64,000 bases of DNA from NCBI GenBank assembly GCA_964511075.1, contig CAZEDM010000008.1, positions 34,470 to 98,469 of the forward strand, given 5' to 3'. A program made the translations under genes and the position numbers. This DNA comes from an uncultured Ignavibacteria bacterium (GTDB lineage Bacteria; Zixibacteria; MSB-5A5; RBG-16-43-9). A model generated the notes under the pieces. It did not search any database. It saw only the letters and a program-made list of their open reading frames with translations, and was not told where the DNA came from. Position 1 is the stretch's first letter. Every line of letters starts with the position of its first letter. This document shows positions 1 through 50,089 of the stretch, in pieces.

Positions 1-1220
1 GTCCCCTGAATTATCTTTCCGTTCTCGTCCATTCCTGAAATTGAGTATTCTTTTTCAAGTGGCACCCGCCTGTCAATGAAACTCTTGTAGATATTGTCAT
101 CAATGTAAAAATTGATTATTTGTTTCAAGCATCTATTAATGAATTCTATACGCCTTTCTCCTGAAAGAAGAAGACTGAATAATAGCTGTGTCTTATCGTA
201 TATTTTAAAAAACTCTCCTTTCAAATGTTCCGTGCCCCCAGCTCCTAGAGCTTTTACTACTGCTTTATTCAACTTATCCTCATAATCTTTCTCGCCTTCC
301 ATTCCTTGTAACTCGTCAATTATCAATCTGTACTGAATCTTGTCTTTGTCGATAATATTAAAATCTTCTTCAACTACACTTTTCTCTTCATTCCTCATCC
401 ATTCAAGACTGTTGTTTCTCGCTCGATCTAATTGTGTAATCAAATTCTGGTTAAGTCCGTCCATCATCACAGGGTTGCCTTCATATCCATAAATATCATT
501 GATGAATTCTAAAACGGTCCAAGTTCCAAAAATACTTGGCTTAGAAGAAATCAAATCCAATGGCCAACCTTTGCTCTTACACTTTCTATGATTCTCTAGT
601 AGCATTTCCATGCCCTTATTCAATATCAGGTTCAGATTCCCTCTCATTCTTTGGAGATCAAATTTCCCCTTCGATTGACTGTAATTCAGTAAAGTCTCTA
701 AGAAGTTTTTAGCCATCAAACACGATGAGAAAATAAAGGAAGCTGCATCAAGGTTAGGTATTTGCCAGTATCGAGATGATCCCCTTTTCCCCGTAGCCTT
801 TTCGAAGCGACCGTATGGCTCTCCTCTAATAGAAAGAACTGGTGTTACCTCTTCTGATAGCGAATTATCCACGACAAAGTTGATATCATCCAACATGCAG
901 TCAGCCAGACCAAAAATGTTTTCTAAGAACATGTCAATGGACATCTCCTGAATATCCAGACAAGGGATAAAGAAGCTTTCCAATGCCTCACAGGTTGTTA
1001 CCACGAAACGACTTTCTTTCTTGAATGTCTGTAAGGAGAAATCAAAAAATTTTAAATTCTCATTAGGCTCATCCACAAATCCCCTGTTTACAACTAGTTC
1101 GTTAAGGCGTGTATCAGATTTTCTCTCTCCAAACTTATTATCTGTCCTTGTTTCGCCTAGATTAATCAGAGCCTCTTTTATTACAGTGAGTACTTCAGAA
1201 GAACTAATATTGCTTGGCAT
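1..1220 (-). CDS. Hypothetical protein, C-terminally truncated by the window edge. Start codon lies 5 nt after the speE stop, so it is the third gene of the speH-speE operon
   Basis: ATG at 1220 (minus strand). Open frame runs to position 1 without a stop (own translation MPSNISSSEVLTVIKEAL...). No motif I recognise. Operon position behind spermidine synthase. Confidence 0.4.
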   Translation of the reverse strand, partial: MPSNISSSEVLTVIKEALINLGETRTDNKFGERKSDTRLNELVVNRGFVDEPNENLKFFDFSLQTFKKESRFVVTTCEALESFFIPCLDIQEMSIDMFLENIFGLADCMLDDINFVVDNSLSEEVTPVLSIRGEPYGRFEKATGKRGSSRYWQIPNLDAASFIFSSCLMAKNFLETLLNYSQSKGKFDLQRMRGNLNLILNKGMEMLLENHRKCKSKGWPLDLISSKPSIFGTWTVLEFINDIYGYEGNPVMMDGLNQNLITQLDRARNNSLEWMRNEEKSVVEEDFNIIDKDKIQYRLIIDELQGMEGEKDYEDKLNKAVVKALGAGGTEHLKGEFFKIYDKTQLLFSLLLSGERRIEFINRCLKQIINFYIDDNIYKSFIDRRVPLEKEYSISGMDENGKIIQG

Positions 1221-1224
1221 TCTA

Positions 1225-2064
1225 TTAACCCCCATTTAATAAGTTTTTTACATAATTAGGTAGTGAAAAACTACTTTTATGTACCTTTTCGTTATAGTAA
1301 ACTAAGTCCTTTCCCAATTTCTCGTATCTCTGTTTCTGAAAATCCTTAATCGGGTCATATTTCTTTGAACAGAATGCGAAGGAATGAAAACCATTGGAAT
1401 AGGTTGGAATATACCCAACAAACAACTTCACGATTGGGAAGATTTGTTCCAATCTCTTAAAGATAGAACCAGTTGTGTCTGGAGTGTAAAAAGGAGAACC
1501 AATTTGAACCACCATTAATCCATCTGATCTTAAAGCCCTGAAACAGTCTGAATAGAATCTGTTCTCATACAGGTGCTTGGCAATAGTTGAAGGGTCTGTT
1601 GAATCAATTATAATTACATCATAATTGTTTTTTACGTGCCTGATGAATTCCTCTCCAGGTTCAATATTTATATTAACTCGATCACTGCAGAGTTCTGCAC
1701 TCAATTCTGGAAAGTGTAATTTAGACAATTCAATCACTTTCTCATCTATTTCTACTAGATCAATGGATGAAATCTTATGCTTGAAAAGCTCTCTGATTGC
1801 TCCTCCATCTCCTCCACCTACCACCAATATATCCCTGGGACTCTTATGCGAGAACATAGAAACATGGACTATCATTTCATGATAAAACCGTTCGTCTTTT
1901 TCGCTCAGCATTATAATCCCGTCTAATACAAACATCTTGCCAAATTCATATGTATCCAAAATGTCTATCTTTTGGTACTTACTTTTTCCACTGTATAAGA
2001 CGGACTTGACTTTGATATCTAATTTTACATTATCAGTATGTTTATCTTGAAACCACCCCACCAT
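1225..2064 (-). CDS. speE: Spermidine synthase (aminopropyltransferase)
   Basis: Glycine-rich VVGGGDGG motif followed by acidic IRE. Overall spermidine-synthase-like layout (DxxxxD ... IIIDSTDP). 279 aa. Confidence 0.85.
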   Translation of the reverse strand: MVGWFQDKHTDNVKLDIKVKSVLYSGKSKYQKIDILDTYEFGKMFVLDGIIMLSEKDERFYHEMIVHVSMFSHKSPRDILVVGGGDGGAIRELFKHKISSIDLVEIDEKVIELSKLHFPELSAELCSDRVNINIEPGEEFIRHVKNNYDVIIIDSTDPSTIAKHLYENRFYSDCFRALRSDGLMVVQIGSPFYTPDTTGSIFKRLEQIFPIVKLFVGYIPTYSNGFHSFAFCSKKYDPIKDFQKQRYEKLGKDLVYYNEKVHKSSFSLPNYVKNLLNGG

Positions 2065-2184
2065 TATGATTCTTCTCCCTTATGATGACTTTCGGATATG
2101 TATATAATTATTACCTTTTAATTAATTCTCTTGCACTACTAAAACATACCCAAGATGCACGCTATTCCGGTCTAGCAAAGAATA

Positions 2185-2568
2185 TTAATGCGGTTTGTGT
2201 GGTAATGACCCAGCTGGGGCATCGAACAAGCCCCTTCGCATTTCAAAATGAGAACTCCTTTTAGATTTTAGTTTTTCCAACAGCAAGTGATGACCTTCCC
2301 ATGGATCAATTTTTCTTCCACAAACCTCAAAATCTACAGCAGCATATCTGTACTCAGGCCAGGTGTGAATAGCTAAATGAGATTCAGCTATTGTGACTGT
2401 TCCACTGATTCCATGAGGATTAAATACATGAAAAGAATAATTGATAACTCTTGCGCCCATTATTTCTGCCGCTTCCAGCATAATTTTTTGTATATACTCT
2501 TTATCCTTTAAAATTTTTGGGTCACAATCAAAATAATCTACACCCACTAATCTCACTAAAGATTCCAT
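2185..2568 (-). CDS. speH: S-adenosylmethionine decarboxylase proenzyme (pyruvoyl-dependent, small bacterial/archaeal type)
   Basis: AESHLAIHTWPE self-cleavage/pyruvoyl motif. 127 aa. Directly upstream of speE. Confidence 0.8.
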   Translation of the reverse strand: MESLVRLVGVDYFDCDPKILKDKEYIQKIMLEAAEIMGARVINYSFHVFNPHGISGTVTIAESHLAIHTWPEYRYAAVDFEVCGRKIDPWEGHHLLLEKLKSKRSSHFEMRRGLFDAPAGSLPHKPH

Positions 2569-3041
2569 TTATTTTTCCTAATTTTAGAAAATTCTCAATC
2601 TATTAGGTTATAGTGAGGATTATTTTGTTCACACACTTTAGGTTAAGCAAATTATTCCCCACTCATTGCTGCGCCCACATTTTTTATACTAACTTATATT
2701 ACATTCTTTTTTTGTCAAGAGTTTTTTTGGCCTTTCCGAAACTTTTTGAGCTTCGCAACTGGATGTTCATAAAAAATACTCCCTACATTTGACACACCAT
2801 TGTGCCAGAGTATTAGAAGAATTGGAATTTGAAACAAAATTGAAGTAAATTAAGATTATAAAAATAAATACACCTCTGTATTTTAAATGATAACATTCTC
2901 AGTTTCTCCCTTCAGTAAAGAGCCTCCCGTTTCCCCTAAGTTCCTATCACAATTAAAGATAATTTTTTCAAAGTTCCTCATAAGATTGGTATTCCAGTTG
3001 CAGTTCAAAGCTGAAAGAAGAACGAGTTACTCAAGGAGGTT

Positions 3042-4448
3042 ATGATGAAGGTTCTTTTGATTTACCCGGATACAAGCCCAGAGAGTGTGATTCCCCAAAA
3101 ACTTATTAATATTGAGCCTCTGGGATTGGAGTACCTGGCTGGGGCGATTCCGGAACATGAGGTTGAGATCTTGGATATGAAGATAGAAAATCATTGGAAG
3201 AAAAAAATTGAAGATTTTCAACCAGACATAGTAGGTATCACCGGCACGGTTATACATACCTCCCGGATGTTTGAGGTTTTGAAAAAAGTAAAAGAGCGCA
3301 ATCAAAGGACCTTGACTATAGTGGGCGGAGTTGGTGCCACTTTAAAGCCGGATGATTTTAACCAACCTTGTGTGGATGTCATTGTCCTGGGGCACAGGGT
3401 ATCCTCATTTAAGGAAATTGTGCAGAATTATGAGCATAAAAAATCTTTTGAGAAGATCGAGGGAATAGCCTTGCCTGATGGAGATAGGCTGTATCTCACT
3501 CCAGTTAAAAATCAAATAACCAGCCTGGACCATCTCCCTTTGCCCAGAAGGGATTTGACTGAAAAGTATCGTAATAGATATTTCCATTTGGTATGGAAAC
3601 CGACTGCTTTGATAATCACCTCAGCCGGATGCCCTTATCAGTGTAATTTCTGCCCTTGTCCGGTGCTCACCCAGAGAAGATTCTTGAAAAGGCCTCCGGA
3701 GTCAGTCATAGAGGAACTTTTACAGATCAAAGAGGAATATATCTACGCCGGAGATGACAACTTCTTCTTCGATTACCAGCACGCACTGAGAATCTATCAG
3801 CTGATAAAGGAATCCGGAATAAAAAAACAGTATTATATCTTGAGCCGGGTAGATGAGATAAACCGCCATCCAGACATTGTGGAGAAATGGGCTGAGATCG
3901 GCTTGAAAAAGGTTTTCTTGGGATTAGAATCTTTCAAAAACGAGGAGCTTCAATCTCTGAATAAGAGATGCACTGTGGAGAAAAATAACCGGGCTATAGA
4001 TATCTTACACCAGAACGAAGTCGATCCTCTGGGCGCATTTGTGATTCAGCCCTATTACAGGAAGGCGGATTTCGATGCGTTGTTAGATTATATGGATAAG
4101 ATGAAAATCTACTATCACGAGTTCACCATTTTAACCCCCTTTCCCGGAACTGAATTCTATGAGGATATAAAAGACAAAATGATATTCACGGATACCCGTC
4201 TGTTCGACTTAGCCCATAGTGTTCTGCCAACTGAGCTTCCCTCAGAGGAGTTCTATAAGTTATACAGTCGCCTCTATCGTAAAGCATTTTCTCTCATCAG
4301 GGCTTTAAGGATTAAGCCCACGGTCTCTCCTTTTGCCAACTTTGGCTTCTTAAGGCTTCTGCCCGGACTTTTTTCTCTGTTCTATTCCGGAACAAAAGCT
4401 TACAGGTCACTGAATAGACTTAATAATTCTTGTCCTGACAGTTTATGA
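3042..4448 (+). CDS. B12-binding domain-containing radical SAM protein
   Basis: N-terminal cobalamin-binding-like Rossmann segment (KVLLIYPD...). Radical SAM cluster motif CPYQCNFC (CxxxCxxC). 468 aa. Confidence 0.75.
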   Translation: MMKVLLIYPDTSPESVIPQKLINIEPLGLEYLAGAIPEHEVEILDMKIENHWKKKIEDFQPDIVGITGTVIHTSRMFEVLKKVKERNQRTLTIVGGVGATLKPDDFNQPCVDVIVLGHRVSSFKEIVQNYEHKKSFEKIEGIALPDGDRLYLTPVKNQITSLDHLPLPRRDLTEKYRNRYFHLVWKPTALIITSAGCPYQCNFCPCPVLTQRRFLKRPPESVIEELLQIKEEYIYAGDDNFFFDYQHALRIYQLIKESGIKKQYYILSRVDEINRHPDIVEKWAEIGLKKVFLGLESFKNEELQSLNKRCTVEKNNRAIDILHQNEVDPLGAFVIQPYYRKADFDALLDYMDKMKIYYHEFTILTPFPGTEFYEDIKDKMIFTDTRLFDLAHSVLPTELPSEEFYKLYSRLYRKAFSLIRALRIKPTVSPFANFGFLRLLPGLFSLFYSGTKAYRSLNRLNNSCPDSL

Positions 4449-4566
4449 CTAATTCGCTCCTCTTTGATCCTCAACAGCTAAATGGCTTAAAAGATATAGA
4501 CATCAGAACTCAGTGCAAAACCTAATATAGCTTGTCTGTGAGGGGAGTATTTATTAATTCAAGAAT

Positions 4567-4690
4567 ATGCTTGACTTAAGATAAATTCCTGAATGGGCTT
4601 ACCTTTGATTTTATAATATAGTCAGTTGCGAAACTCGTCCAGTGCGGGGTATTTTAAGTTATTGTGGTTTAATAACTTAAGCTTAGGTTA
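4567..4690 (+). repeat. Copy 1 of a ~120-nt conserved non-coding element (begins ATGCTTGAC...). Second copy at 8942-9060
   Basis: About 80% identity over ~80 nt with the second copy by manual alignment, weaker similarity for another ~45 nt. No ORF covers it. Sits in a 750-bp gene-free region. Confidence 0.4.
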
Positions 4691-5193
4691 AGCGTCCTCC
4701 TGTTCTTTTATATAGATACTTTTGAGAAGAAGAATTAGTGCGGTTGTATATAATAAAGCCATATACAGACCCTCTCACTCAATTCAATAATAAACAAAAA
4801 GGGGTGCAGAGGAGGGCACCTGCCATATCCTGAAACCGACTTGAATCCTATAGGACTTCTTACAATAACATTCCTCCTTAAAAATCATTAGGGTCTTCTG
4901 TTAAATGGTCCCTTATCGGGATTTGTCTTGACTTCCTTGGGTCAAGGGTTATTTTGTTATCGAATTAATCTTTAAGACATCGACAGACAGTTAGTCATGG
5001 CTGGAGGCTATACAATTCAATAGATTTAAACAAATTAAGCTGTGTACCCCAGTTTCGAGAAGGTTAGTCTGCAAAGCAACTTAGGGAAGAGGTGCTTGAT
5101 GTGAAATTAAACGGGAAAACATCTATGCTTACTTGAGCTGGCTGAAAATGTTTGCCGGGAAGTAAAAAATAGAAAAGAAGAGGGTATATATTT

Positions 5194-7653
5194 ATGGATA
5201 GAAGTGTTATAACTGCTGAGGAAGCAAAAAAAGCAAGCTTAAAGGAATTATTACAAAAGCTCTCAGCAAACACAAAAGGACTTTCTTCTTCAGAAGCAAG
5301 GGATCGGCTTAAGCTGTACGGTCCTAATGAGATCCCTGAGAAAAAAGTCAATCCCATACTTAAACTATTAAGATACTTCTGGGGTCCTATTCCCTGGATG
5401 ATCGAGGTTGCCGCCATCCTCTCGGTGCTGGTACGCCATTGGCCCGATTTTTTCATCATCCTAGCTTTGCTTTTTGTGAACGCTGTCGTGGGCTTCTGGG
5501 AGGAATTCAAGGCGGGCAACACGATTGCCGCGCTAAAGGCAAAGTTGGCCTTGAAAGCTCGGGTTAAACGGGATGATGCCTGGGGCACAATCCCTGCACG
5601 TGAATTAGTTCCGGGAGATATAATCAGGCTGCGAATCGGTGATATTGTGCCAGCCGACGCCAGATTGCTGGATGGCGATCCGGTTCAGGTGGACCAATCG
5701 GCTCTTACCGGCGAGTCACTGCCGGTGACGCACAAGACGGGTGATGTCGTCTATTCCGGTTCCATAATCAGGCAGGGGGAAATCGATTCGCTTATCTATG
5801 CTATCGGGACAGACACCTATTTCGGCAAAACCGCTCACCTTGTGGAAGAAGCTCACACCGTAAGCCATTTTCAGCGTGCCGTTTTGAAGATCGGAGACTA
5901 TCTTATCGTTGTAGCTCTGATCCTGGTGATCTTGATCCTGTCAGTGGCTCTTTTTCGTGGTGATAATATGCTCACGACCCTTGAATTTGCGTTGATCTTG
6001 ACGGTGGCCGCCATACCCGTAGCCATGCCAACGGTGTTATCGGTCACCATGGCAGTAGGTGCCCGGCTGCTGGCTAAGAGACAGGCAATCGTAAGTCGGT
6101 TAGCCAGTATCGAGGAGATGGCAGGTATAGACGTATTGTGTTCTGATAAGACCGGCACTTTAACTCAAAATAAACTGTCCTTGGGAGATCCTGCGGGGGT
6201 TGTCGGTGTAAGTCGCGATCAGATAATCCTCAGTGCAGCGTTGGCATCACGGGCAGAGGATCAAGACCCTATCGATTTAGCCGTGCTCAGTGGCCTTAAA
6301 GACGACCAGCAGCAGGCCGGATACCAGATCCTTCATTTCATGCCATTTGACCCGGTTCACAAGCGCACGGAGGCCACGGTGAAGGGACCGGGCGGGGAGA
6401 CCTTTAAAGTGACCAAAGGTGCACCGCAGGTGGTCTTGGAGCTGGCGGCCAATGCGGCACAGGTTCGATCTCAGGTCGAGAAAGCGGTAGGAGAATTTGC
6501 AGTACGCGGTTTCCGCTCTCTGGGCGTGGCCCGCACGGACCAGCATAGCCAATGGCAGTTTTTAGGTGTGATTCCATTATACGACCCACCTAGGGAAGAT
6601 TCAAAAACCACCATCAAAACCGCAGGAGAGATGGGTGTAAAAGTCAAGATGGTCACCGGGGATCAGGTGGCCATAGCGAAAGAGACAGCCCGGCAGTTGG
6701 ACCTGGGTACAGATATCCTGGATGCAGCGCTCTTTGCAGATACCAAGCATCACGAGACCGGTCAGCTCGCCAACGCCATCGAGCAGTCTGACGGCTTTGC
6801 TCAGGTCTTCCCCGAGCATAAATATCACATTGTGGATGTGCTTCAGCAACGAGGCCATATCGTTGGTATGACTGGCGATGGTGTCAACGATGCCCCAGCG
6901 CTAAAGGAGGCTGATGCCGGTATTGCAGTTTCCGGAGCAACCGATGCTGCGCGCAGCGCGGCGGATATCGTCCTTTTGACTCCGGGCCTCTCAGTGATAA
7001 TTGATGCCATCAAGGAAAGCCGCAAGATCTTTCAACGAATGGGCAGCTATGCAACCTATCGTATTGCAGAGACCATCCGGGTGTTGTTGTTCATGACCCT
7101 TTCCATCTTAGTTTTTAACTTCTATCCGGTGACCGCTGTGATGATCGTCTTGTTGGCACTGCTTAATGACGGTGCCATCTTGTCCATCGCTTATGATCAT
7201 GTTCGTTATTCCAATAAACCTGAGGTATGGAAAATGACTGAGGTGTTAAGCATAGCCACGGTTCTTGGCATAATGGGAGTATTTGCCTCCTTTGGTTTAT
7301 TTTACCTGGGCGAAAGAGTTTTCCACCTCAACCGAGAAGTCATACAGTCTCTGATGTACCTTAAACTCTCGGTAGCAGGTCACCTGACCATCTTTATCAC
7401 ACGGACCCGAGGATCTTTTTGGTCCTTCCGCCCTGCGCCGATCCTGATAGGAGCAGTCAGCGGAACACAACTGGTAGCGACCTTAATTGCCACCTTCGGT
7501 CTATTTATGGCCCCCATCGGTTGGAAATGGGCACTGTTTGTCTGGGGCTATGCCCTGGCATGGTTTCTGGTGAATGACAGGGTCAAACTGGCAGCATACC
7601 GGATTTTCGATCATCGTCAGCCGGGCTTGCTGACAAAGACGGACAAAAGATGA
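5194..7653 (+). CDS. P-type cation-transporting ATPase, P3A (plasma-membrane H+-ATPase-like) type
   Basis: Phosphorylation motif CSDKTGTLT, hinge motif TGDGVNDAPAL, plus KGAP and MVTGD motifs. N-terminus resembles fungal/plant/archaeal H+-ATPases. 819 aa. Confidence 0.85.
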   Translation: MDRSVITAEEAKKASLKELLQKLSANTKGLSSSEARDRLKLYGPNEIPEKKVNPILKLLRYFWGPIPWMIEVAAILSVLVRHWPDFFIILALLFVNAVVGFWEEFKAGNTIAALKAKLALKARVKRDDAWGTIPARELVPGDIIRLRIGDIVPADARLLDGDPVQVDQSALTGESLPVTHKTGDVVYSGSIIRQGEIDSLIYAIGTDTYFGKTAHLVEEAHTVSHFQRAVLKIGDYLIVVALILVILILSVALFRGDNMLTTLEFALILTVAAIPVAMPTVLSVTMAVGARLLAKRQAIVSRLASIEEMAGIDVLCSDKTGTLTQNKLSLGDPAGVVGVSRDQIILSAALASRAEDQDPIDLAVLSGLKDDQQQAGYQILHFMPFDPVHKRTEATVKGPGGETFKVTKGAPQVVLELAANAAQVRSQVEKAVGEFAVRGFRSLGVARTDQHSQWQFLGVIPLYDPPREDSKTTIKTAGEMGVKVKMVTGDQVAIAKETARQLDLGTDILDAALFADTKHHETGQLANAIEQSDGFAQVFPEHKYHIVDVLQQRGHIVGMTGDGVNDAPALKEADAGIAVSGATDAARSAADIVLLTPGLSVIIDAIKESRKIFQRMGSYATYRIAETIRVLLFMTLSILVFNFYPVTAVMIVLLALLNDGAILSIAYDHVRYSNKPEVWKMTEVLSIATVLGIMGVFASFGLFYLGERVFHLNREVIQSLMYLKLSVAGHLTIFITRTRGSFWSFRPAPILIGAVSGTQLVATLIATFGLFMAPIGWKWALFVWGYALAWFLVNDRVKLAAYRIFDHRQPGLLTKTDKR

Positions 7654-7818
7654 GCCGGCGATTTCAATACTGCTTTGAGCTGTTGTCTTGGGAGATGAAT
7701 TTAGCTGTTCACCTGGAACGGCTATACAGGCCATACCCACAGCAATAAAACCTAATTTTTTAATGCTGGGGCAAAGCTAATACCCAAAGCGACAAAATGA
7801 AGCGTAAAAGGAGTAAAA

Positions 7819-8376
7819 ATGTCGGGAAACTTGAATCGTAAAAACAAAGATAAAACAAGCCGAAGCACAAACATCCCCCAGACTGCCATCAGATCCTTGA
7901 TTGCCGACCTGAGAAGTAATGACGGAATGCTACGCCAGCGATCACGCCAGTCCCTGGTAGCTATTGGGAAACCGGCCGTCGCCTACCTGGTAAAACTGAT
8001 GAGAGACGTAAATGATCAGGTTCGGTGGGAAGCGACGAAAGCGTTGGGTGACATTGGCGATCCGGAAACTGCACCTGCTCTGACAGAGGTTCTGGAGGAC
8101 GAGGAGTTCGATGTCCGCTGGCTGGCAGCTGAGGGCCTGATCGCTCTGGGACGTAAAGGATTAGCCCCATTGCTCAAGGCATTGACGGAACGTCCGCAAT
8201 CGGTCTGGTTGCGAGAGGGGGCACATCACGTTCTTCACAATTTGGCAAAGGCGGGTCCTGATAAAAGGGTGGCATCTTTGCTGCAGGCTCTCGAAAGCGT
8301 CGAGCCCGAAATCGATATCCCCCCGGCAGCACACAAGCTTCTAAGCGCCCTGGGAAAAAAAGAGAGGAAAAACTAA
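7819..8376 (+). CDS. HEAT / PBS-lyase-like repeat protein
   Basis: Repeated LGDIGDPETAPAL...D.VRW.AAEAL-type HEAT-like repeats. Confidence 0.6.
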   Translation: MSGNLNRKNKDKTSRSTNIPQTAIRSLIADLRSNDGMLRQRSRQSLVAIGKPAVAYLVKLMRDVNDQVRWEATKALGDIGDPETAPALTEVLEDEEFDVRWLAAEGLIALGRKGLAPLLKALTERPQSVWLREGAHHVLHNLAKAGPDKRVASLLQALESVEPEIDIPPAAHKLLSALGKKERKN

Positions 8377-8941
8377 TGACTTTAGAGAATACTCTTTTGA
8401 CCTGATCGCCAGCAGCTCCAATTCTCTGCTCTGTTAAAGAAACAATATTCTGAAAGAACAGTAAATACACTTCTGAAATTTAGTAGAACAGAATCTACTA
8501 AGAGAGAGTTCCTAAAAGAAATAAAGATGTAAAAAGCGTAAACAGAAGCTGCACCTGTTGCATTATTTGCCCCCCCCGGTGGGCTAAGCAGGTGAGAGAA
8601 AATAGAAAGAACGCAATATCGAGTAAATGATCCACGAATTAAATATTTAATGGAAAAATCAAAAAGCCTGCTTGGTAGGGGTTTAATATTAAGTTAGAAG
8701 CAAAAAGAATCAAAGATTAATCTGTCCCGTATTTCGCTCCAGTTTAAAGTTAGTATATCAGGCTGGACTGAGGGTTAAGAATCTTGAAGAATCATTGTTG
8801 AACTATTCGGACTGCTGCACTCCGCTCACCAGAAAACAGTCAGTAAAACAGGCGAAAGCAAGGAACCACAGTGACGTAGCGCTATATTTTGGTGATCCGG
8901 TCTCGTTGATCGGAGAAGATGGGCATCTGTCATTTCAAAAA

Positions 8942-9060
8942 AATGCTTGACCTAAGGTAAATTTCTGAATAAGCTTACCTTTGATGTTATGATAAAGCCA
9001 GTTGAGAAACTCGCCCAGTGCCAGCTCATAACCTATTGGATGGTAATGACTTAAGGACAA
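8942..9060 (+). repeat. Copy 2 of the ~120-nt conserved non-coding element
   Basis: Aligns with 4567-4690 in the same orientation. A shorter shared box (TAGCTTGTCT.TG...CAAGAAT) lies upstream of copy 1 (4527-4566) but downstream of copy 2 (9131-9160). Confidence 0.4.
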
Positions 9061-9415
9061 GCTGGGCAGTCCCTTGTCTTTCCTTCAGACAATTCTCAAA
9101 CAACGAATTACATAGAAAGGAGTCGGGTGTAAGATTTACAATAGCTTGTCTTTGCCAATCCAAGAATCAAAATAAAGGAGTATAGGCGGAGGCTACACCC
9201 CGGAAGTAAACTGCTATTCATCTTTTGGATCCATCATATACTCCATAATAGTTCCTTTTGTGAGTACTAAATATTTGGGGGGGGGTAAGGAAGGGTACAT
9301 TCCACTTGTTTAGCTTGACATTTGCTATGGCAGGACTAACTTTAAAAGTGGTACAATAATTGGGGGCAGGCCAAAGTTGGAAGCATTGTGCTTAAACTAA
9401 GAAGAATATCTTAGA

Positions 9416-9548
9416 TTCGCGAAATATAGCTAAAAAGTTACGAATATATCGCAAATATTCGCGATATATTAACAAGTAATAACTTAGTGAATTATGTTGA
9501 GATGATAGGTTTTATATAAATAGATTCGCAAAGACTCGCGAATCCGGA
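9416..9548. promoter_or_regulatory. Cluster of TCGCGA-containing palindromes. Includes two 7-bp inverted repeats with 8-bp spacers (ATATCGC-N8-GCGATAT and GATTCGC-N8-GCGAATC) and a TTCGCGAA palindrome
   Basis: Read directly from sequence. Located 185-315 bp upstream of the 9733 gene in a gene-free region. Confidence 0.3.
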
Positions 9549-9732
9549 TTGAGTTATATATTTAAATAATTTCTACCCCCTCCTAATTCCAAGTAACACA
9601 AAGTGTTAGACTCGAAAAGATATATATTGGATTTTGGCATACTTCTTGTTGTTATAGTTACTTAAGTATGTAGAGAACGAGAAACTTTTACCTGCCGATA
9701 TATGAACTGTTAGAAATCTAACTCGTAAAAAC

Positions 9733-11394
9733 TTGAAAGGAGTGGTTATGCATTCAAACAAAAGACAATTTAAAATTCAGCACTCCTGGCATTGGATGGT
9801 TGGTTTTTTAGCATTTCTCTGGGTTTTACTAAGAAGCGGTACAAACCCCAAGCGGTTAACCTATCCTTGCCAGAGGGCAGCCATGCCCTTTGCTGCAAAT
9901 TGGTTTCTGGCAGTGATTGCATTTTTTGTGGGGAGTATATTTTTACGAAGATTTGTCAAGTTTTCCGGGGTACTGATTCTGATAGGGGGGGTTATCTGGT
10001 TCACAGGTGCCTTGCCCGAACTTACCAGATCCCAGCTAAATTGCCCAGGGACCCTTCCAGTATGGGAAGTTCCTGATCCCGTGTCAACCGTTTTCGTGAT
10101 GGATTCCCTTCCCCCGACAACTGGTTCTCTTGCTGCGGGTGATGCAACTGTTCCCGACGAGTACCTTTCAGATCCTGCTATGGATTCCATACTTGCCATG
10201 ATGGAGACAAAAGACATTTTTCTTCACAAAACCGCATCCCAGCCGTCCGGCATAGTGGGGACTGAGGATATCGTGATCATCAAGGGGAATTTTCAATGGA
10301 CCAGCAGGAACACCACCAGCACCGACCGCATAAAAGGATTGATCTGGCAGATATTAAATCACCCGGATGGGTTTTCCGGCGAGATTCTGATATGCGACAA
10401 TACGCAGGATATTGGCACGGGAATCAACCAGGCGGACAATAATTCCGAGGATACAGCTCAGTCCCTTCCGGATGTGGTGAGTACCTTTTATGCTAAAGGA
10501 TATCCGGTATATTATCTGGACTGGGCCTATCTCTGGAGTGTAGTGGCATCAGAATATTCTACTGGTGATTATGATGACGGGTATGTCTATGATACGCTGA
10601 CAAAGATATCCTACCCCAAGTTTCGATCCCCATCGGAGGATTACTATATTTCTCTGCGCTACGGGATCTGGGATTCGCTTTCGGCTGAGTATGATTCCTC
10701 CCGTCTCTGCATAATTGATTTCCCCGTGTTAAAATCTCACATGATGGCTGGTGCTACAATCGCTGTTAAAAACTGGATAGGAGTGCTTACTACAGCATAT
10801 GCTAATCAGCGCTATGGGAGCTGGGATAATATGCATTACTTTTATTTCTGGGGTGATTATGCCCTAGTCGCACGGCTGATCGCCGTAACCTACCCCAAAC
10901 TCTCAATAGTTGATGCGACCTGGACTTCAACCTATAATGCGAATGATCTTGACTGGCTGGCAAATACGAATATGCTGGTAGCTTCCACCGACCCTGTTGC
11001 GGCTTCCTGGTATGCAGCAAAATTCATACTCACACCTGTTGCTCGTTTTCGTCATTATACCAATCCAGAAACTGGTTATTATAGTACGACTCTGAATAGA
11101 TGGACAGCCTACCTGAGCGATTCAGCAGGAGTATCCTGCACAAAAGATTCTGCTGAAATCTCTGTTTATGACCGGAGAGTTATGGGCCCCTTATACACTT
11201 GCGGTGATACTGACGGAGATGAAGAGTTAAATGTTTCAGACGTGATATATTTAATCAACTACCTGTTCAAGGGAGGTTCTCCTCCTGATCCAGCCCAGAC
11301 TGGTGATGTAAATTGCGATGGTGAAACAACAGTGTCTGATGCGATCTTTTTAATCAATTATCTTTTCAAAGGCGGGGGGGAACCATGTAGCTAA
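9733..11394 (+). CDS. Membrane-anchored protein with a C-terminal duplicated dockerin-like (type I, Ca-binding) module
   Basis: N-terminal hydrophobic helices. C-terminus has GDTDGDEELNVSDVIYLINYLFKGGSPP and GDVNCDGETTVSDAIFLINYLFKGGGEPCS, matching D-x-[DN]-x-D-G-x5-D dockerin repeats. Central domain unassigned. Confidence 0.6.
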   Translation: MKGVVMHSNKRQFKIQHSWHWMVGFLAFLWVLLRSGTNPKRLTYPCQRAAMPFAANWFLAVIAFFVGSIFLRRFVKFSGVLILIGGVIWFTGALPELTRSQLNCPGTLPVWEVPDPVSTVFVMDSLPPTTGSLAAGDATVPDEYLSDPAMDSILAMMETKDIFLHKTASQPSGIVGTEDIVIIKGNFQWTSRNTTSTDRIKGLIWQILNHPDGFSGEILICDNTQDIGTGINQADNNSEDTAQSLPDVVSTFYAKGYPVYYLDWAYLWSVVASEYSTGDYDDGYVYDTLTKISYPKFRSPSEDYYISLRYGIWDSLSAEYDSSRLCIIDFPVLKSHMMAGATIAVKNWIGVLTTAYANQRYGSWDNMHYFYFWGDYALVARLIAVTYPKLSIVDATWTSTYNANDLDWLANTNMLVASTDPVAASWYAAKFILTPVARFRHYTNPETGYYSTTLNRWTAYLSDSAGVSCTKDSAEISVYDRRVMGPLYTCGDTDGDEELNVSDVIYLINYLFKGGSPPDPAQTGDVNCDGETTVSDAIFLINYLFKGGGEPCS

Positions 11395-11446
11395 TGTGAG
11401 AGATCAACAAACTGGGATGAGAGAAGAGATAGCAGAAGTTTCAGGA

Positions 11447-11983
11447 TTATGATTGCTCTTTGTTCCTTTTTAATAGTGCTTGGCAGGTGGAACAGAAGTT
11501 TTTCGTTTTAAAGTCAATTTCCTCAGCATAGCTTGTAGGGTACATCACACAATTCGGGGTCCGGCAGTGTATCAGGCCAAAAGTATGACCCAGCTCGTGC
11601 ACTGCCTCCTTTTCCAGCCGTTCTTTTAGTCTCTGAGGATTTTTGGGCAGTCCATATAGCTCGTCTCTTAAACGGTAAGTGGAAACCACGGCAGTTTTCC
11701 CGTTCAGCTGAGCTTCTCCGAAAACAAAAGTCAAGACGGGGATATACAGATCCACCTGCGTCACAGCCAGGATTTTGCAGTTGCCTTCTGGAGCCTGGGT
11801 TAGAAGCTGGGATAATATCCAGGTGGAGTTATATTGATTGCGGACAGGATCTCTGCCCTGCTCCAAAAGGAAAGAGCTATCCGAAATGGCAACCGGAAGG
11901 ATAAAGATTTCCTTCAATACCAAGGAAATATTATCCAGGAGGTCCTTGTCCGAGAATTGAAGTGGAAGTATGTATAGTCGCAC
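11447..11983 (-). CDS. amzA: Archaemetzincin-family zinc metallopeptidase
   Basis: HELGHTFGLIHC...C...CSTC, i.e. HExxHxxGxxH followed by a Cys4 zinc ribbon, the archaemetzincin signature. 178 aa. Confidence 0.7.
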   Translation of the reverse strand: MRLYILPLQFSDKDLLDNISLVLKEIFILPVAISDSSFLLEQGRDPVRNQYNSTWILSQLLTQAPEGNCKILAVTQVDLYIPVLTFVFGEAQLNGKTAVVSTYRLRDELYGLPKNPQRLKERLEKEAVHELGHTFGLIHCRTPNCVMYPTSYAEEIDFKTKNFCSTCQALLKRNKEQS

Positions 11984-11985
11984 AT

Positions 11986-13338
11986 CTATTTCCGCAAGCC
12001 GTATTTTTCGATCTTATTGTAAAGCGTAGCTCTGTCGATCTTCAGAACCTCAGCTGTCCGAGTTATGTTCCATCCCATCTCCTCCAGCAGGCACTTTATG
12101 TGTATCTTCTCGACTGCCTCCAGGCTCCTGTCCTCCGGAACGTATTTCGGACACGGTAAGATGGGGAGGTCATCCACAGAGATGCAGGATTCCTTAGCTA
12201 CAACTATTGCTCTCTCCACGGCATTTTTTAACTCCCTTACGTTTCCCGGCCAGTCATAGGTTGTGAGCTTATCCAGGGCTTCTTTGGAAAAGCTATTTAC
12301 CGGTTTGTTCAAACTGGTCGCTATCTTTTTTAGAAAGAAATTGCACAGAAGCGGGATGTCGGAACGTCTTTCCCTTAAAGGTGGAATAGAGATGGAGAAT
12401 ACGTTTAGCCTGTAATAGAGATCTTCTCTGAACGCTCCCTGCTTTACCGCCAGCTCCAGGTCCCGGTTGGTAGCGCAGATCAATCGAAAGTCGACCTTGA
12501 TGATCTCGTCTCCCCCTACCCGGGCGAACTGCTTGGTCTCAATTACCCGCAGTAGGTCTGTCTGAGATTTGGGGTCGATATTTCCGACCTCGTCCAGAAA
12601 GATGGTTCCTCCATTGGCCATCTCGAATTTTCCCTTGCGCCGATATAATGCCCCGGTGAAAGCTCCCTTCTCGTGACCGAAGAACTCGCTTTCCGTAAGT
12701 CCCTCGGTTAGGCCTCCGCAATTTACCGTGATGATAGGGAAAAATCTCCTGGAGCTTTTGGAATGAATGGCCCGGGCGATAAGCTCCTTGCCGGTTCCGC
12801 TTTCACCTTTAATCATCACACTTGTGTCGGTATTAGCTACAGTGTCAATCATATCAAAGACCTTCAGCATAGCAGAGCTCTCCCCGATGATCTGATCCAC
12901 CTCATAGAGCTCCTGGATCTGTTCTTTAAGCTGGATGTTCTCCGTAAGCAGGCGTTTTTGTTTTATAACGTTGTTTACCAGATGAGAGAGGTAATCAGGA
13001 TCTATTGGCTTGGTGATATAGTCGTATGCTCCTTCCTTGAGAGATTTTACAGCGGTATCAACCGTGGCAAAGGCCGTGATCATGATGATAGTTGCGTTGG
13101 CGTCGATATCTTTGATCCTCTGCTGTAGTTCAATTCCGTCCATACCAGGGAGTTTTATGTCCAGGAATACGATATCCCAGAGACCCGGCTTTATCTTCTT
13201 CAGAGCCTCGGTGGCATCTGCGGCAGAGTCTGCCAGGTAACCGTCTTCCTTAAACCACTCAGTTAAAGAATCCCTCACACTGAATTCATCATCCACAATC
13301 AAAATGCTTACCGAATCTTTATCCTTTTTGAGATTCAT
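11986..13338 (-). CDS. Sigma-54-dependent two-component response regulator (NtrC/Fis family)
   Basis: Receiver domain (ILIVDDE...D). AAA+ sigma-54 interaction motifs GESGTGKE, GAFTGA-like (GAFTGA) and ESEFFGHEKGAFTGA. C-terminal helix-turn-helix. Confidence 0.85.
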   Translation of the reverse strand: MNLKKDKDSVSILIVDDEFSVRDSLTEWFKEDGYLADSAADATEALKKIKPGLWDIVFLDIKLPGMDGIELQQRIKDIDANATIIMITAFATVDTAVKSLKEGAYDYITKPIDPDYLSHLVNNVIKQKRLLTENIQLKEQIQELYEVDQIIGESSAMLKVFDMIDTVANTDTSVMIKGESGTGKELIARAIHSKSSRRFFPIITVNCGGLTEGLTESEFFGHEKGAFTGALYRRKGKFEMANGGTIFLDEVGNIDPKSQTDLLRVIETKQFARVGGDEIIKVDFRLICATNRDLELAVKQGAFREDLYYRLNVFSISIPPLRERRSDIPLLCNFFLKKIATSLNKPVNSFSKEALDKLTTYDWPGNVRELKNAVERAIVVAKESCISVDDLPILPCPKYVPEDRSLEAVEKIHIKCLLEEMGWNITRTAEVLKIDRATLYNKIEKYGLRK

Positions 13339-15385: not shown

Positions 15386-16897
15386 ATGTCAAAACTCCTT
15401 TTGATTTTCCTCCTTATATTTCTTTTTAGCATACCTCTCTTTGCCCAATCCGTTGACACTGCCTGGGTGAGAAGATATACCGGTTTAATAAATGGAGACG
15501 ATAGAGCAACTGATTTAGTCCTGGATAGTGTGGGGAACATCTACCTGACCGGATACTGTGAGCAAAATGTGAGTGGAAATATCAATACCGGTTTTGTTAC
15601 TATAAAGTACTATCCGGATGGGAATACTGCCTGGATAAGAAGCTATGCCGGGGAGGATAACTCAGACGATTATGCTGAGGCTTTAGCCCTCGATGATTAC
15701 GGCAATGTGTACGTGACTGGTGCGGGCGATGTAAATTCAGATGCCGGATCCTACAGTGGCTACCTCACAATAAAATATTTACCTAACGGAGATACTGCCT
15801 GGGTGAGATACTTCAGGGAAGAGGTAACGGAAAAAAACCTGGGTGCTTATGCTATAGCTGTGGATAATTGCGGAAACGTCTACGTGACAGGAACAGGTGC
15901 CACTATAGGATACGACACCGACGGAGACTGCCTATGGATTGACTCTTCCGACTTTGTTGGCCAGGACATAGCCATAGATGATTCCGCTTACGTCTATGTT
16001 GCCGGTTACAGTAAAGGGGATGGAACATATTATGATTATGTCACGGTGAAATATTCTCCTGAGGGGGATACTGTCTGGACGAGAAGATATAATGGGCCGG
16101 GAAATGGCGATGACCGAGCCTGTGCAGTAGCTGTTGACGATTCAGGTAAAGTGTACGTGACCGGTTCAAGCTTAAGTCTGGGAACATCCTATGATTATGC
16201 CACCGTCAAATATCACTCCAACGGGGATATCTGCTGGGTTAGGAGGTATAATGGGCCGGCTGATGAGTGGGAACAAGCATCTGCCTTGGCGGTAGACGAC
16301 TCAGGCAACGTATATGTAACCGGGTTCAGTCAGGGGACAGGGACATCTCACGATTATGCTACAATTAAATACCACTCCAGTGGAGATACAGCCTGGCTGA
16401 GAAGATATAATGGGGCTGCAAACTCCTCTGACCGGGCCTGGGATATTGCTATTGATGATCTGGGTAATTCCTATGTGACAGGCTATAGTTCAGACACGGA
16501 AAGCTCAGACGATTATGCTACCGTTAAATACAGTCCTAAAGGAGAACGACTCTGGGTAGAGAGATACAACGGGCCGGCTAATTCCTTTGATCGCCCCTCT
16601 GCTATAGCTGTGGATAAGCTCAAAAATGTATATGTGGCTGGTTGGAGTAATGGAGGCGAGACCTCTAAGGATTATACCACTATAAAGTATATTCAGTTTT
16701 TGCGGGGAGATACTGACAGTAACGGGTATCTATCCTTCTCGGATATAGTCTATCTGATAAATTATCTTTTCAAATTCGGCTCCCTTCCGTATCCCTATCA
16801 GTCAGGAGACACAAATTGTGACGGTAAGGTCAGCCTTTCTGATGCGGTGTATCTGAAGGCATATCTTTTAAAAATGGGGGCACCGCCCTGTAGATGA
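15386..16897 (+). CDS. Secreted SBBP beta-propeller repeat protein with C-terminal dockerin-like module
   Basis: Signal peptide. About 8 repeats of the pattern Y.T.KY...G...W.RRYNG....D.A.A.AVD.SGNVYVTG. C-terminus GDTDSNGYLSFSDIVYLINYLFKFG / GDTNCDGKVSLSDAVYLKAYLLKMGAPPCR. Confidence 0.7.
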   Translation: MSKLLLIFLLIFLFSIPLFAQSVDTAWVRRYTGLINGDDRATDLVLDSVGNIYLTGYCEQNVSGNINTGFVTIKYYPDGNTAWIRSYAGEDNSDDYAEALALDDYGNVYVTGAGDVNSDAGSYSGYLTIKYLPNGDTAWVRYFREEVTEKNLGAYAIAVDNCGNVYVTGTGATIGYDTDGDCLWIDSSDFVGQDIAIDDSAYVYVAGYSKGDGTYYDYVTVKYSPEGDTVWTRRYNGPGNGDDRACAVAVDDSGKVYVTGSSLSLGTSYDYATVKYHSNGDICWVRRYNGPADEWEQASALAVDDSGNVYVTGFSQGTGTSHDYATIKYHSSGDTAWLRRYNGAANSSDRAWDIAIDDLGNSYVTGYSSDTESSDDYATVKYSPKGERLWVERYNGPANSFDRPSAIAVDKLKNVYVAGWSNGGETSKDYTTIKYIQFLRGDTDSNGYLSFSDIVYLINYLFKFGSLPYPYQSGDTNCDGKVSLSDAVYLKAYLLKMGAPPCR

Positions 16898-17124
16898 GAA
16901 ACTTAGATTAATCTACTCTTTTGTCTCTGGGCTTCAGAGAAAAATCCTTAAAATAGTGCTTGACAGGCTTAATAACACTCTTAAATTGAATTTATAGGAA
17001 GAGATAGGAAAGCAATATCATCACAATTGAGAAAATGGGAAATTTTACGGAGTTTCCTCATCCCTGCTATAAACAATTTAATTTCTAAACAGATCACATT
17101 TACCTCTGAAGAAAGGAGGAAAAA

Positions 17125-18666
17125 ATGGATTCAAAAAATTTATCTTTTGGAAGAGGTATGGGCTTGCTCTCCATTTTATTTGCGCTCGTAGGTTTTATCT
17201 ATGCCCCGCTTATAATCGCAGATGAGGATCCAAAAGATGCTGAAAGATCTTCTCAGGAGGAGCAAACTCTTATAGCTCCCGCTGACACCGTTATCTGTGG
17301 TGATGTAAATGGAGTTGGAGTTCCACCCTACGGGAACCTGACCCTGGCAGACGCCGTTTATCTGTGGAGCTTTCTTTTCAGAGACGGGCCCTCCCCAGTG
17401 CCGGACACATGCGTGGGCGATGCAAATGGTGATGGTACTGTTAGTGTTACTGACTGGATGGTTCCAATCAAATATCTGTACAAGGATACAGATCCTCCTG
17501 TAGATTACTGCTGTGATTCTGCCACACAGAGACAGCTTCCAGCCATTCAGGCACCTGGGAATACGGCAGTGTATGCAGATACTTTATATAATTTCATGAG
17601 GGTAGAGAATACCGTTGCCAGACCAGGCGCCCAGGGACACGTGATCAACGTCTATGGTTCGTGGAATGCAGAGCTGGGAGCATACGGTATGGTGTTGCTT
17701 TTCGATACCAGCAAGATCGATATAGTTGAGGTTTCCCCTACGGGGACAGCAGGCGAAGAGGGTATGCTTATTTCCAATTATCTGGGAAATTACTCACCTT
17801 TGAAAGCTGCTCTCCATCTGGATAATTACATCCCTGCTGACTCGGGCATCTTATTCAAAATCGTGGTTAATGTAAAAGAGACTGCTCCTCTGGGCGAGAC
17901 AGACCTGATTTTAGTTAACCAGCCTGGAACACCGCCTTGGATGTGTGATTATGCTTTGTCTGACGGGATTAATGATATATTTCCAGAATTGATGTCTGGA
18001 ACATTGAGCATAGAGGTGATCTGCGGTGACATTAATGGAGATGGTCTGGTGTCGGCCTCAGATGTGGTATATCTGCTCAATTATCTCTTCAAGGGAGGTT
18101 CTCCGCCGCTCTGCGCACCTGGACCTTATCTTGCCTGTGGAGACGTTAATTCCGATGGCCAGGTATCGATGAGTGATGTTGTCTATCTGATCAGCTATCT
18201 TTTCAAAGGGGGACCTCAGCCAGATTGCTCCTCTCCCATTGGCACTCTTATTCATCACTCTGATTGCAAAGGATTCGCCCTGAGAAGCTCTGTGGACAGT
18301 ATTTCACCAGATCAGGGCTGTATGGAATATTATTATGATGGGGAGGGTATTCTTGAGCTCAGACATATCAATGCAGGATTTAACTGCTGTCCAGATGATA
18401 TAATAGCGGATATCAGGTTGGAGGGCAATGTCATCTACATAGAGGAAAGAGAGTCTCTGAGTAACCCGTGTCATTGCCTTTGTCTTTTTGATTTAGACCT
18501 CCGGGTCATTAACCTGGAGCCCGGAGAGTATGTGATAAGTGTAATAGAACCTTATGTAGCTGAGGATGAGGCGAAATTAGAATTTCCGGTTAGTCTTTCT
18601 TTTTCACCTGTAGAGGGGGTATACTGTGTTGGAAGAAGCAATTACCCCTGGGGCGTCTGGGAATAA
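17125..18666 (+). CDS. Secreted dockerin-cohesin-dockerin protein (mini-scaffoldin-like) with C-terminal Cys-rich domain
   Basis: Signal peptide. N-terminal dockerin-like pair (CGDVNGVG... / GDANGDGTVSVTD...). Central segment ...TVARPGAQGHVINVYGSW...LLFDTSKIDIVEVSPTGT...SGILFKIVVNVKETAPLGETDL matches the cohesin profile. Second dockerin pair (GDINGDGLVSASDVVYLLNYLFKGGSPP / GDVNSDGQVSMSDVVYLISYLFKGGPQP). Confidence 0.55.
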   Translation: MDSKNLSFGRGMGLLSILFALVGFIYAPLIIADEDPKDAERSSQEEQTLIAPADTVICGDVNGVGVPPYGNLTLADAVYLWSFLFRDGPSPVPDTCVGDANGDGTVSVTDWMVPIKYLYKDTDPPVDYCCDSATQRQLPAIQAPGNTAVYADTLYNFMRVENTVARPGAQGHVINVYGSWNAELGAYGMVLLFDTSKIDIVEVSPTGTAGEEGMLISNYLGNYSPLKAALHLDNYIPADSGILFKIVVNVKETAPLGETDLILVNQPGTPPWMCDYALSDGINDIFPELMSGTLSIEVICGDINGDGLVSASDVVYLLNYLFKGGSPPLCAPGPYLACGDVNSDGQVSMSDVVYLISYLFKGGPQPDCSSPIGTLIHHSDCKGFALRSSVDSISPDQGCMEYYYDGEGILELRHINAGFNCCPDDIIADIRLEGNVIYIEERESLSNPCHCLCLFDLDLRVINLEPGEYVISVIEPYVAEDEAKLEFPVSLSFSPVEGVYCVGRSNYPWGVWE

Positions 18667-23595: not shown

Positions 23596-23727
23596 AAAAC
23601 CTCCTGCAGAATTCTTGATAAAATCATCTTTTAAAAAGCTTATCGGAGTACAAATCTTTAGAGTTGCCAGAATTATTTTGTGGGGATTAGAGGCAAAGCT
23701 AAAGCTTTACACTCCATACTTTCCTCT

Positions 23728-23979: not shown

Positions 23980-24002
23980 CTGTTACTCCTTTCTGCCTGT
24001 GT

Positions 24003-25878: not shown

Positions 25879-25992
25879 CTTAAGAGGATTTTAGCAAGTC
25901 AAAAAACGGGTAGAATGCGGTTATCTTAGATTATCTACCATTCACTATGAACCATAAACCAAAAAAATCCCCCAGGGGAAGAAAAGCTTTTC

Positions 25993-47932: not shown

Positions 47933-47933
47933 C

Positions 47934-50072: not shown

Positions 50073-50089
50073 AGTTTGGAGTTTGTTCG

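Follow-up and report, generated by a model that had tools for sequence, protein, structure and literature searches.

The two similar non-coding segments described here stand as direct repeats on either side of a 4.2-kb block that carries the genes of an H+-transporting P-type ATPase and a HEAT-repeat protein. They are located in the genome of an uncultured bacterium of the Zixibacteria lineage (GenBank assembly GCA_964511075.1), in a stretch of 64,000 nucleotides (nt) of contig CAZEDM010000008.1 (positions 34,470 to 98,469) that is called the window in the following and is numbered from its first letter. Judging from gene orders in relatives, the core of the bracketed block has moved during the history of these genomes. 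With moderate confidence, we regard the two segments as copies of one promoter-bearing spacer that was duplicated when the ATPase/HEAT block was inserted, and accordingly as the scar of a duplicative insertion. As such, the pair adds an example to a class of rearrangement products that is already known, and the interpretation is an ordinary one. A previous inspection of the letters without database searches (the sequence-only reading) had already recognised that a non-coding element is present twice, in front of two unrelated genes on the plus strand, and this observation is confirmed here (97 nt at 82% identity; best local match with E 2.3e-16). It had missed that the copies, as direct repeats, enclose genes whose location has changed, with different neighbours on both sides in the relatives.

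The gene order around the pair starts with speE and speH on the minus strand and a radical-SAM gene, followed by copy 1, the H+ P-type ATPase gene (5194-7653) and the HEAT gene (7819-8376). Copy 2 comes next, then a gene for a DUF362/dockerin protein (9748-11394) and, on the minus strand, an M54 peptidase gene and a sigma-54 two-component system. The repeat search of the window delimited a gapless direct repeat of 97 nt (4549-4645 and 8925-9021) with a start-to-start spacing of 4376 nt. The best blastn segment of the spacer-against-spacer comparison, which gave the E value quoted above, is slightly shorter and more similar (4558-4645 and 8934-9021; 88 nt, 85% identity). A gapped global alignment shows patchy similarity on to ~4711 and ~9086, so that the whole stretch amounts to ~160 nt. 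Repeat search, blastn, alignment and promoter patterns together define copy 1 (H1) as 4549-4711 and copy 2 (H2) as 8925-9086, both on the plus strand. The similarity of the tails is weakly significant (local score of 21 versus 13.1 +/- 2.2 in shuffles, p ~0.01), and the longest identical stretch left between the copies is 13 nt. In the gapped alignment, identity amounts to 73% in the A/T-rich upstream part, 83% in the -35 box, 88% in the spacer, 67% in the -10 box, 87% in the next 46 nt and 59% in the tail.

The pair stands alone in the sequence at hand. No third copy was detected in the 64-kb window with a profile of the pair (nhmmer --max), and the pattern CAGTTGNGAAACTCGNCCAGTGC occurs exactly twice in the window with an expectation of zero, as does the conserved 23-mer CAGTTG.GAAACTCG.CCAGTGC. 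The same organism is also represented by a separate Logan contig (L108), which agrees with window positions 1-12064 at 100% identity and has the arrangement unchanged there; the 8.8 kb of new sequence that it adds contains no further copy, which leaves two copies in 72.8 kb of the genome. An nhmmer search of ~1.6 Mb of related loci with the pair profile returned weak chance matches only. The best of them (L086, 4326-4347, E 0.09) is a 22-nt stretch, CCAGGTGCGAAATTCGTCCAGT, located ~35 nt upstream of an ABC-transporter gene; it resembles the conserved transcribed core of the element, probably by chance. Public collections were scanned for exact matches to three conserved stretches of the element. 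These scans yielded no match in the genome collection, none and then 12 matches in the metagenome collection that lack flank similarity and represent chance, and a single chance match, in a giant-virus contig, in the viral collection. A blastn comparison with plasmid and phage records gave no match. The element is also absent from orthologous positions in relatives, namely downstream of the radical-SAM gene (L001-L006), around the ATPase gene (L081-L087) and upstream of the DUF362/dockerin gene (L100-L104). The sequence-only reading had held that a lack of further copies and of conservation in relatives would tell against its own candidates, a small-RNA family, a riboswitch-like leader or a transposable repeat; as far as the data reach, neither was found.

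The block bracketed by the copies (4712-8924, plus strand) is composed of 423 nt of non-coding DNA, a two-gene cassette and another 542 nt of non-coding DNA. The cassette (5135-8382, plus strand) encodes the ATPase, which is of the plasma-membrane type, and the HEAT-repeat protein of 185 amino acids (aa). DNA homology to relatives (79-81.5% identity) is limited to the cassette: it covers 5135-8382 in the comparison with L081-L084 and lies within 5211-8406 in the comparison with L085-L087. The neighbours of the cassette differ in all relatives examined, i.e., in seven loci (L081-L087) with three different neighbourhoods. In one lineage, the cassette is preceded by an aldehyde dehydrogenase gene and a gene for a 212-aa protein and followed by GIY-YIG genes and CstA; in another, phosphoglucomutase and pyruvate kinase genes stand upstream and Usp, LDH and PFK downstream. 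Conversely, the orthologues of the genes that flank the block in the window are found in relatives without the cassette and without the element. The absence of the element at both the radical-SAM and the DUF362/dockerin orthologues, which favours the insertion reading, documents that it is not an old feature of either flank. No flanking repeats were found around the ATPase/HEAT cassette of the relatives. The ATPase protein has thousands of close homologues, and the best 120 of those listed show 76-88% identity and come from many sources, including one labelled Anaerolineae.

The association of the two cassette genes is an observation of its own. A HEAT gene (~185-206 aa) follows the H+-ATPase gene in every related locus examined (L081-L087) while all other neighbours differ, and the two genes look like a conserved functional pair. 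Downstream of the cassette in L081 (13558-14426), pairs of near-identical stretches that resemble the ends of tRNA genes alternate with two small GIY-YIG nuclease genes.

The same window contains a parallel case in which the insertion is documented. A second direct repeat of ~370 nt and ~80% identity (25676-26044 and 47607-47985, plus strand), composed of four collinear families that are 77-89% identical at a spacing of 21.93 kb, brackets a block of 21.6 kb (26045-47606) with genes for multihaem cytochromes, NrfD, an Fe-S protein, cytochrome b and CcmE/F. No integrase was found within this block. The 5' end of a gene for an acetyl-CoA-synthetase-like protein (24121-25878, minus strand) is intact in the left copy, which also holds the upstream region of this gene and a decayed 3' fragment of tRNA-Lys. 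The right copy comprises the 3' 53 nt of the intact tRNA-Lys gene (47933-48006, minus strand) and a pseudogenised fragment of the other gene, whose translation covers about 67 N-terminal residues of the acetyl-CoA-synthetase-like protein and is broken by stop codons and a frameshift. A close relative (L106; 94% protein identity, 86-92% DNA identity) is colinear with window positions 22923-26044 and 47607-53206, lacks the block and harbors the 370 nt only once (5318-5687), which represents the uninterrupted site; the block is also missing in the relative L107. A three-way alignment shows full identity of L106 and the right copy in the tRNA part, where the left copy has decayed; in the 5' part of the gene, it is the left copy that tracks L106 and the right copy that has decayed. 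By these comparisons, the insertion of the cytochrome block is documented, as are its long target duplication and the reciprocal decay that followed. The identity of its repeats is the same as that of the pair under study, and it is by the same logic, with the empty site of L106 as the precedent, that we infer an insertion for the ATPase/HEAT block.

The shared segment carries a complete promoter of the type that prevails in this genome. The pattern TTGAC-N16-18-TAnnnT occurs 13 times in the window, and 11 of these sites fall into the intergenic 16% of the sequence (10.3 kb), compared with 1.4 +/- 1.2 in dinucleotide shuffles (maximum of 5 in 300 shuffles), which corresponds to an 8-fold enrichment. 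Most of the 11 intergenic sites are followed at 50-420 nt by a gene or tRNA in the same orientation, and those of tRNA-Lys and of an M50 peptidase gene are conserved in the relatives L106 and L107. On this evidence the genome uses ordinary sigma-70-type promoters. Copy 2 carries one of the 11 sites and matches the consensus: an A-rich upstream stretch and the dinucleotide GC are followed by the -35 box TTGACC (8947-8952), a 17-nt spacer and the -10 box TAAGCT (8970-8975), with a predicted start at ~8982-8984. A second, extended -10 box, TGtTATGAT (8985-8993), stands within the part that is conserved to 9021, beyond which the diverged tail reaches to ~9086. Copy 1 has its A/T-rich part at 4549-4570, the -35 box TTGACT at 4571-4576 in the same position as in copy 2 and the same 17-nt spacer, followed by the degenerate -10 box TGGGCT (4594-4599), which differs by the change of AA to GG. 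The first promoter of copy 1 is probably dead because its -10 box lacks the critical A. A perfect second -10 box, TATAAT (4612-4617), is found further on; conservation extends to 4645 and the diverged tail to ~4711. In both copies, this second -10 box lies 12 nt on and its -35 box is weak (CTGAAT).

The homology opens with the A/T-rich part that immediately precedes the -35 box and is strongest over the promoter and the first ~40 nt transcribed. Given that it carries a promoter, the element is probably transcribed. Canonical promoters are also present between each copy and the downstream gene, namely at 4928 (TTGACT-16-TATTTT), where the promoter-like sequence sits inside a hairpin of the 423-nt non-coding part, and at 9315 (TTGACA-16-TAACTT). 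Two other promoter types were considered and rejected. A Bacteroidetes-type promoter (TTTG ... TAnnTTTG) is suggested by TAccTTTG in both copies, yet its -33 partner is absent at the right spacing and the combined motif is not enriched; the spacing is unfit for a sigma-54 promoter on either strand (by inspection).

In the scenario that we prefer, a single ~160-nt stretch with a promoter would originally have stood in the spacer that separates the radical-SAM gene from the DUF362/dockerin gene. The 4.2-kb block, consisting of the H+-ATPase/HEAT genes and ~1 kb of non-coding DNA, would have been inserted into that spacer and would have duplicated the stretch. Single-crossover integration of a circle leaves the insert flanked by direct repeats of the homologous stretch, as described by the Campbell model. 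A circular DNA with a homologous stretch and a single crossover of this type may therefore have been the likeliest route, and any other duplicative insertion would give the same result. The copies would then have diverged, and their identity is now 82-87% near the promoter and ~59% in the tail. Continuous with the original downstream DNA, the right copy would have retained the canonical TTGACC-17-TAAGCT, and transcription presumably still begins there at ~8983; the product could be either a short non-coding RNA or a long leader for the DUF362/dockerin gene. In the left copy, the first -10 box would have been lost; via TATAAT, this copy may provide some read-in transcription to the ATPase operon in addition to the promoter-like site at 4928.

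Several points weigh against this scenario. No uninterrupted site for the pair exists among the relatives found, which lack synteny here: the nearest relatives of the locus share ~80% (radical SAM) and ~75% (DUF362) identity at the protein level and have a different gene order. The block also includes about 1 kb of non-coding DNA besides the cassette. The G+C of the ATPase and HEAT genes, the highest among the 46 window genes (0.51 and 0.53 versus 0.453 +/- 0.034), speaks in favour of the scenario, but their third-position G+C is normal (0.55 versus 0.50 +/- 0.06), and compositional proof of a foreign origin was rejected on these grounds. The uneven divergence of the copies (87% versus 59%) hints at selection on a functional promoter or RNA, which it would fit better than the neutral decay of a scar. 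Two 14-nt boxes outside the copies are not predicted by a simple single-crossover model. Finally, the copy count covers 72.8 kb of a genome that probably comprises several Mb, and a dispersed family is possible. The missing empty site, the uneven divergence, the unpredicted boxes and the large unseen part of the genome are the reasons why we rate the insertion as probable and not as established.

The main alternative is that the two segments are paralogous small-RNA genes, each with a promoter and a transcript of ~85-105 nt ending in a pyrimidine/U-rich tract, in which case the ATPase block would be no more than intervening DNA, and targets would be bound by pairing with the conserved 5' part (CAGUUG.GAAACUCG.CCAGUGC) as a seed. 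The extent of the homology is in accordance with this proposal, since it spans positions of about -60 to about +105 from the predicted start, and a T-rich tract closes it in each copy (CCTGTTCTTTTAT and CTTGTCTTTCCTT). Past the promoter, conservation is highest over the first 40 nt of the predicted transcript (87%), and a hairpin-containing 3' half is possible in both copies. The closer promoters at 4928 and 9315 are available for the downstream genes, so that the promoters of the copies are not needed for them. A promoter of its own is present in copy 2, where it matches the consensus, but copy 1 has only TATAAT with a weak -35 box and a first -10 box without the critical A. Small-RNA genes would moreover be compatible with the duplication scenario. 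Against them stands the outcome of the RNA searches. The predicted transcripts have folding z values of -0.46 to -1.85, which are not significant, and the 3' stems are found at non-homologous positions in the two copies. A search for intrinsic terminators flagged none that is common to both copies, and no strong G+C-rich stems and no convincing terminator of this kind were found in either copy. There are no homologues in the relatives or public collections searched. We therefore consider paralogous small-RNA genes unlikely, although they remain the best of the alternatives.

The database searches for RNA families were uniformly negative for the element, which is no member of an Rfam family. 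At the gathering threshold, tRNA-Lys is the only Rfam match in the whole window, and a tRNA/tmRNA search likewise recovered only tRNA-Lys at 47933. At relaxed thresholds, the regions 4400-5250 and 8370-9760 gave chance-level matches far under the gathering scores (E 0.47-4.3). The Rfam scan proposed in the sequence-only reading thus returned nothing for the element at either threshold. A conserved small open reading frame (ORF) across both copies was rejected, as no frame stays open in both of them, and a 41-aa ORF overlapping copy 2 had two borderline matches among 1.84 billion representative proteins, both to long unrelated proteins.

A second alternative holds that the segments belong to a dispersed family similar to miniature inverted-repeat transposable elements (MITEs), with imperfect terminal inverted repeats and portable homology or promoters, of which two copies captured the cassette or flank it in a composite-like manner. 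An imperfect inverted repeat is indeed present in each copy. In copy 1 (4569-4693), the arms GCTTGACTTAAG (4569-4580) and CTTAGGTTAAGC (4682-4693) match in 10/12 positions; their counterparts in copy 2 (8945-8957 and 9050-9062) match in 10/13, and both pairs are ~100 nt apart. The cargo between the copies is mobile, and 14-nt direct boxes flank the whole unit, as would suit such a family. However, ~0.5 inverted repeats with 10/12 matches are expected by chance within 160 nt according to calculation. The repeat could be the closing stem of an RNA or plain chance. The homology runs ~20 nt past both arms, which are thus not termini. No target-site duplication abuts them; the 14-nt boxes stand 9 and 55 nt outside the segment ends. 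The identity of 82% is low for an active family, and there are just two copies in 72.8 kb, 4.4 kb apart, with none in the related loci or collections scanned. The proposal, also made in the sequence-only reading, stands or falls with copies in the unseen remainder of the genome and appears improbable; what was seen of it is an internal, chance-level inverted repeat.

The boxes themselves were correctly noticed in the sequence-only reading as a permuted companion that precedes copy 1 and follows copy 2. The first, ATAGCTTGTCTGTG (4527-4540, plus strand), is located ~9 nt to the left of copy 1 and the second, ATAGCTTGTCTTTG (9141-9154, plus strand), ~55 nt to the right of copy 2. They match in 13/14 positions and are the sole such sites in the window at zero mismatches. 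Shuffles yield p ~0.0025 for the two flanks in a post hoc test, the blastn E value is only 0.19, and the box core GCTTGTC resembles the common -35 context of this genome, GCTTG[AT]C. For these three reasons, support for the companion box is graded as marginal, and the box is probably real. It can be read as the core of an attachment site, in which case the segment 4541-9140 (4.6 kb) would be an islet without an integrase whose circular form entered the chromosome at the box; in that circle, the two copies would have stood in tandem on either side of the attachment site, as arm-type or promoter repeats. The order of box, 8 nt, copy 1, copy 2, 55 nt and box is exactly what a crossover at the box predicts, and the 13/14 match has p ~0.003. 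Still, no integrase or recombinase gene is present in the segment or adjoins it: the flanking and enclosed ORFs showed no recombinase domain and the spacers no protein similarity. The boxes are not identical (13/14). Because their core is like an ordinary -35 context, the shuffles overstate the significance. The parallel cytochrome case needs no such site, and we regard an attachment site at the boxes as very improbable.

The least credible alternative is a shared cis-regulatory leader (riboswitch or attenuator) that ties the ATPase operon and the DUF362/dockerin gene to one signal: both copies lie upstream of plus-strand genes, 4560-4700 of copy 1 folds better than shuffles (z -2.86) and the closing stem is partly retained in copy 2, but the fold of copy 2 is not significant (z -0.41), promoters and, for copy 1, a terminator-like hairpin (4926-4947) intervene on the 480-660 nt to the start codons (482 nt from 4711 to 5194 and 661 nt from 9086 to 9748), the element is missing upstream of the orthologous ATPase and DUF362 genes, and Rfam contains no match. 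In the two-sequence consensus fold (-8.2 kcal/mol, 30 pairs), a compensatory change on both sides is found in 1/30 pairs. The 5' arm of its closing stem (GCTTGAC.TAAG with CTTA.G..AAGC) is the -35 box, and an RNA from the element's own promoter would accordingly lack that arm. The suggestion of the sequence-only reading that the element is an RNA family or a riboswitch-like leader thus finds no support in Rfam or beside the flanking-gene orthologues of the relatives, and covariation between the two copies is close to nil.

The insertion scenario can be compared with several known systems. Its closest counterparts are Campbell-type integrations and other long target duplications. Both here and there, direct repeats bracket a block that is sited elsewhere in relatives, the repeat is ordinary local sequence and no mobility gene is needed in the block, and the second case of the window even provides an empty site and reciprocal decay. 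In contrast, the event proposed for our pair is reconstructed and not observed, its repeats are only 82% identical with a longest identity of 13 nt, and the boxes are not predicted. Islands that are associated with tRNA genes and duplicate the tRNA 3' end resemble the 21.6-kb block, which resides in tRNA-Lys and has left a partial tRNA copy; they differ in that no integrase was found here, that the duplication extends 320 nt past the tRNA into the neighbouring gene and that the studied pair is without a tRNA. The Correia elements of Neisseria are MITEs that carry promoters. The present segments share with them a size of ~120-160 nt, the intergenic location, an internal inverted repeat and promoter-like hexamers, but they are not multi-copy as far as seen, their inverted repeat is not terminal and a target-site duplication is missing. 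OmrA and OmrB of enterobacteria are neighbouring paralogous small-RNA genes, likewise two nearby copies with a shared promoter and 5' region and a diverged remainder. The copies described here are, however, separated by 4.2 kb of protein-coding cargo, and no terminator, conserved structure or conservation was found for them.

A further point of reference are the putative mobile promoters, i.e., homologous promoter regions upstream of non-homologous genes in one genome (Matus-Garcia, Nijveen and van Passel 2012, PMC3488235). They were defined by at least 50 nt at at least 80% identity within 150 nt next to the start codon (PMC3488235). The shared segment has a promoter and, with 88 nt at 85%, exceeds both the length and the identity limit, and both its downstream genes (ATPase versus DUF362/dockerin) and its upstream genes (radical SAM versus HEAT) are non-homologous. 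It departs from these promoters in that the copies are located 480-800 nt upstream with other promoters between and in that only two members exist, next to each other.

Taken as a small piece of genome archaeology, the pair would indicate where and roughly how the H+-ATPase/HEAT genes entered a Zixibacteria genome, with a native promoter duplicated in the process. The duplication of a promoter upon insertion is one way in which newly acquired genes can get transcribed. Together with the cytochrome insertion, the pair suggests a recurrent integrase-free insertion of blocks with long target duplications in this uncultivated lineage, which bears on the spread of respiratory and ion-transport traits among uncultured bacteria. 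The window may hold two such blocks, the proton pump/HEAT block with a 160-nt duplication and the multihaem-cytochrome respiratory island of 21.6 kb with a 370-nt duplication. A broader and rather doubtful generalization is that the Zixibacteria lineage acquires or exchanges blocks without mobility genes by recombination that leaves unusually long target duplications, and that the ~160-nt element with its 14-nt boxes would be a portable homology-and-promoter module which targets the insertion and switches the cargo on. The pair also serves as a warning that similar intergenic stretches in pairs do not always represent an RNA family.

The radical-SAM/B12-binding gene (3042-4448) shows ~80% protein identity to genes of Zixibacteria metagenome-assembled genomes, and the DUF362/dockerin and acetyl-CoA-synthetase-like genes likewise point to Zixibacteria. 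The gene-free gaps that hold the copies extend over 745 nt (4449-5193) and 1371 nt (8377-9747). The sequence-only reading had described them as unusually long ORF-free stretches; their size and lack of meaningful ORFs stand, but long gaps are not rare here, given that eight other gaps of the window span 411-814 nt. Small ORFs in both gaps had no Pfam match, and tblastn with all window proteins and the L081 neighbours of the cassette detected no pseudogene remnants in the spacers.

Some further features of the spacers were observed. To the right of each copy, terminator-like hairpins with T-runs on the minus strand (4803-4820 and 9177-9201) suggest unannotated minus-strand transcripts that would end there. 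A non-coding stretch of 55 nt at 9321-9375 (…TACAATAATTGGGGGCAGG.CAAA) is 84% identical to an intergenic stretch of L081 (5877-5931, E 8e-10) with different neighbour genes; it overlaps the promoter-like TTGACA-16-TAACTT at 9315 and may be a small RNA or a regulatory site. Palindromes of the TTCGCGAA type (e.g., AATATATCGCGAATATTTGCGATATATT and AGATTCGCAAAGACTCGCGAATCC) are clustered at 9412-9470 and 9522-9545, at a distance of 200-330 nt before the DUF362/dockerin gene; they have the look of operators that a dimeric regulator might bind. Upstream of the radical-SAM gene, ~190 nt (2850-3041) show ~75% DNA identity in the Zixibacteria relatives L001, L002, L004 and L006, where the DNA downstream of this gene is not conserved; this region, which has no Rfam match at the gathering threshold, may represent a conserved leader or a regulatory region.

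Elsewhere in the window, the promoter TTGACA-17/18-TAAGAT at 22130 (plus strand) has no plus-strand gene downstream and is followed ~140 nt later by a hairpin with a T-run (22273-22305) that resembles the G+C-rich hairpin at 50106-50138, which makes the site a candidate small-RNA gene between two minus-strand genes. In-frame repeats are present in secreted proteins: one gene contains eight beta-propeller-like units of ~159-168 nt (15455-16641), and dockerin-type repeats are common to three genes, including that of the DUF362 protein (11236-11384, 16739-18221).

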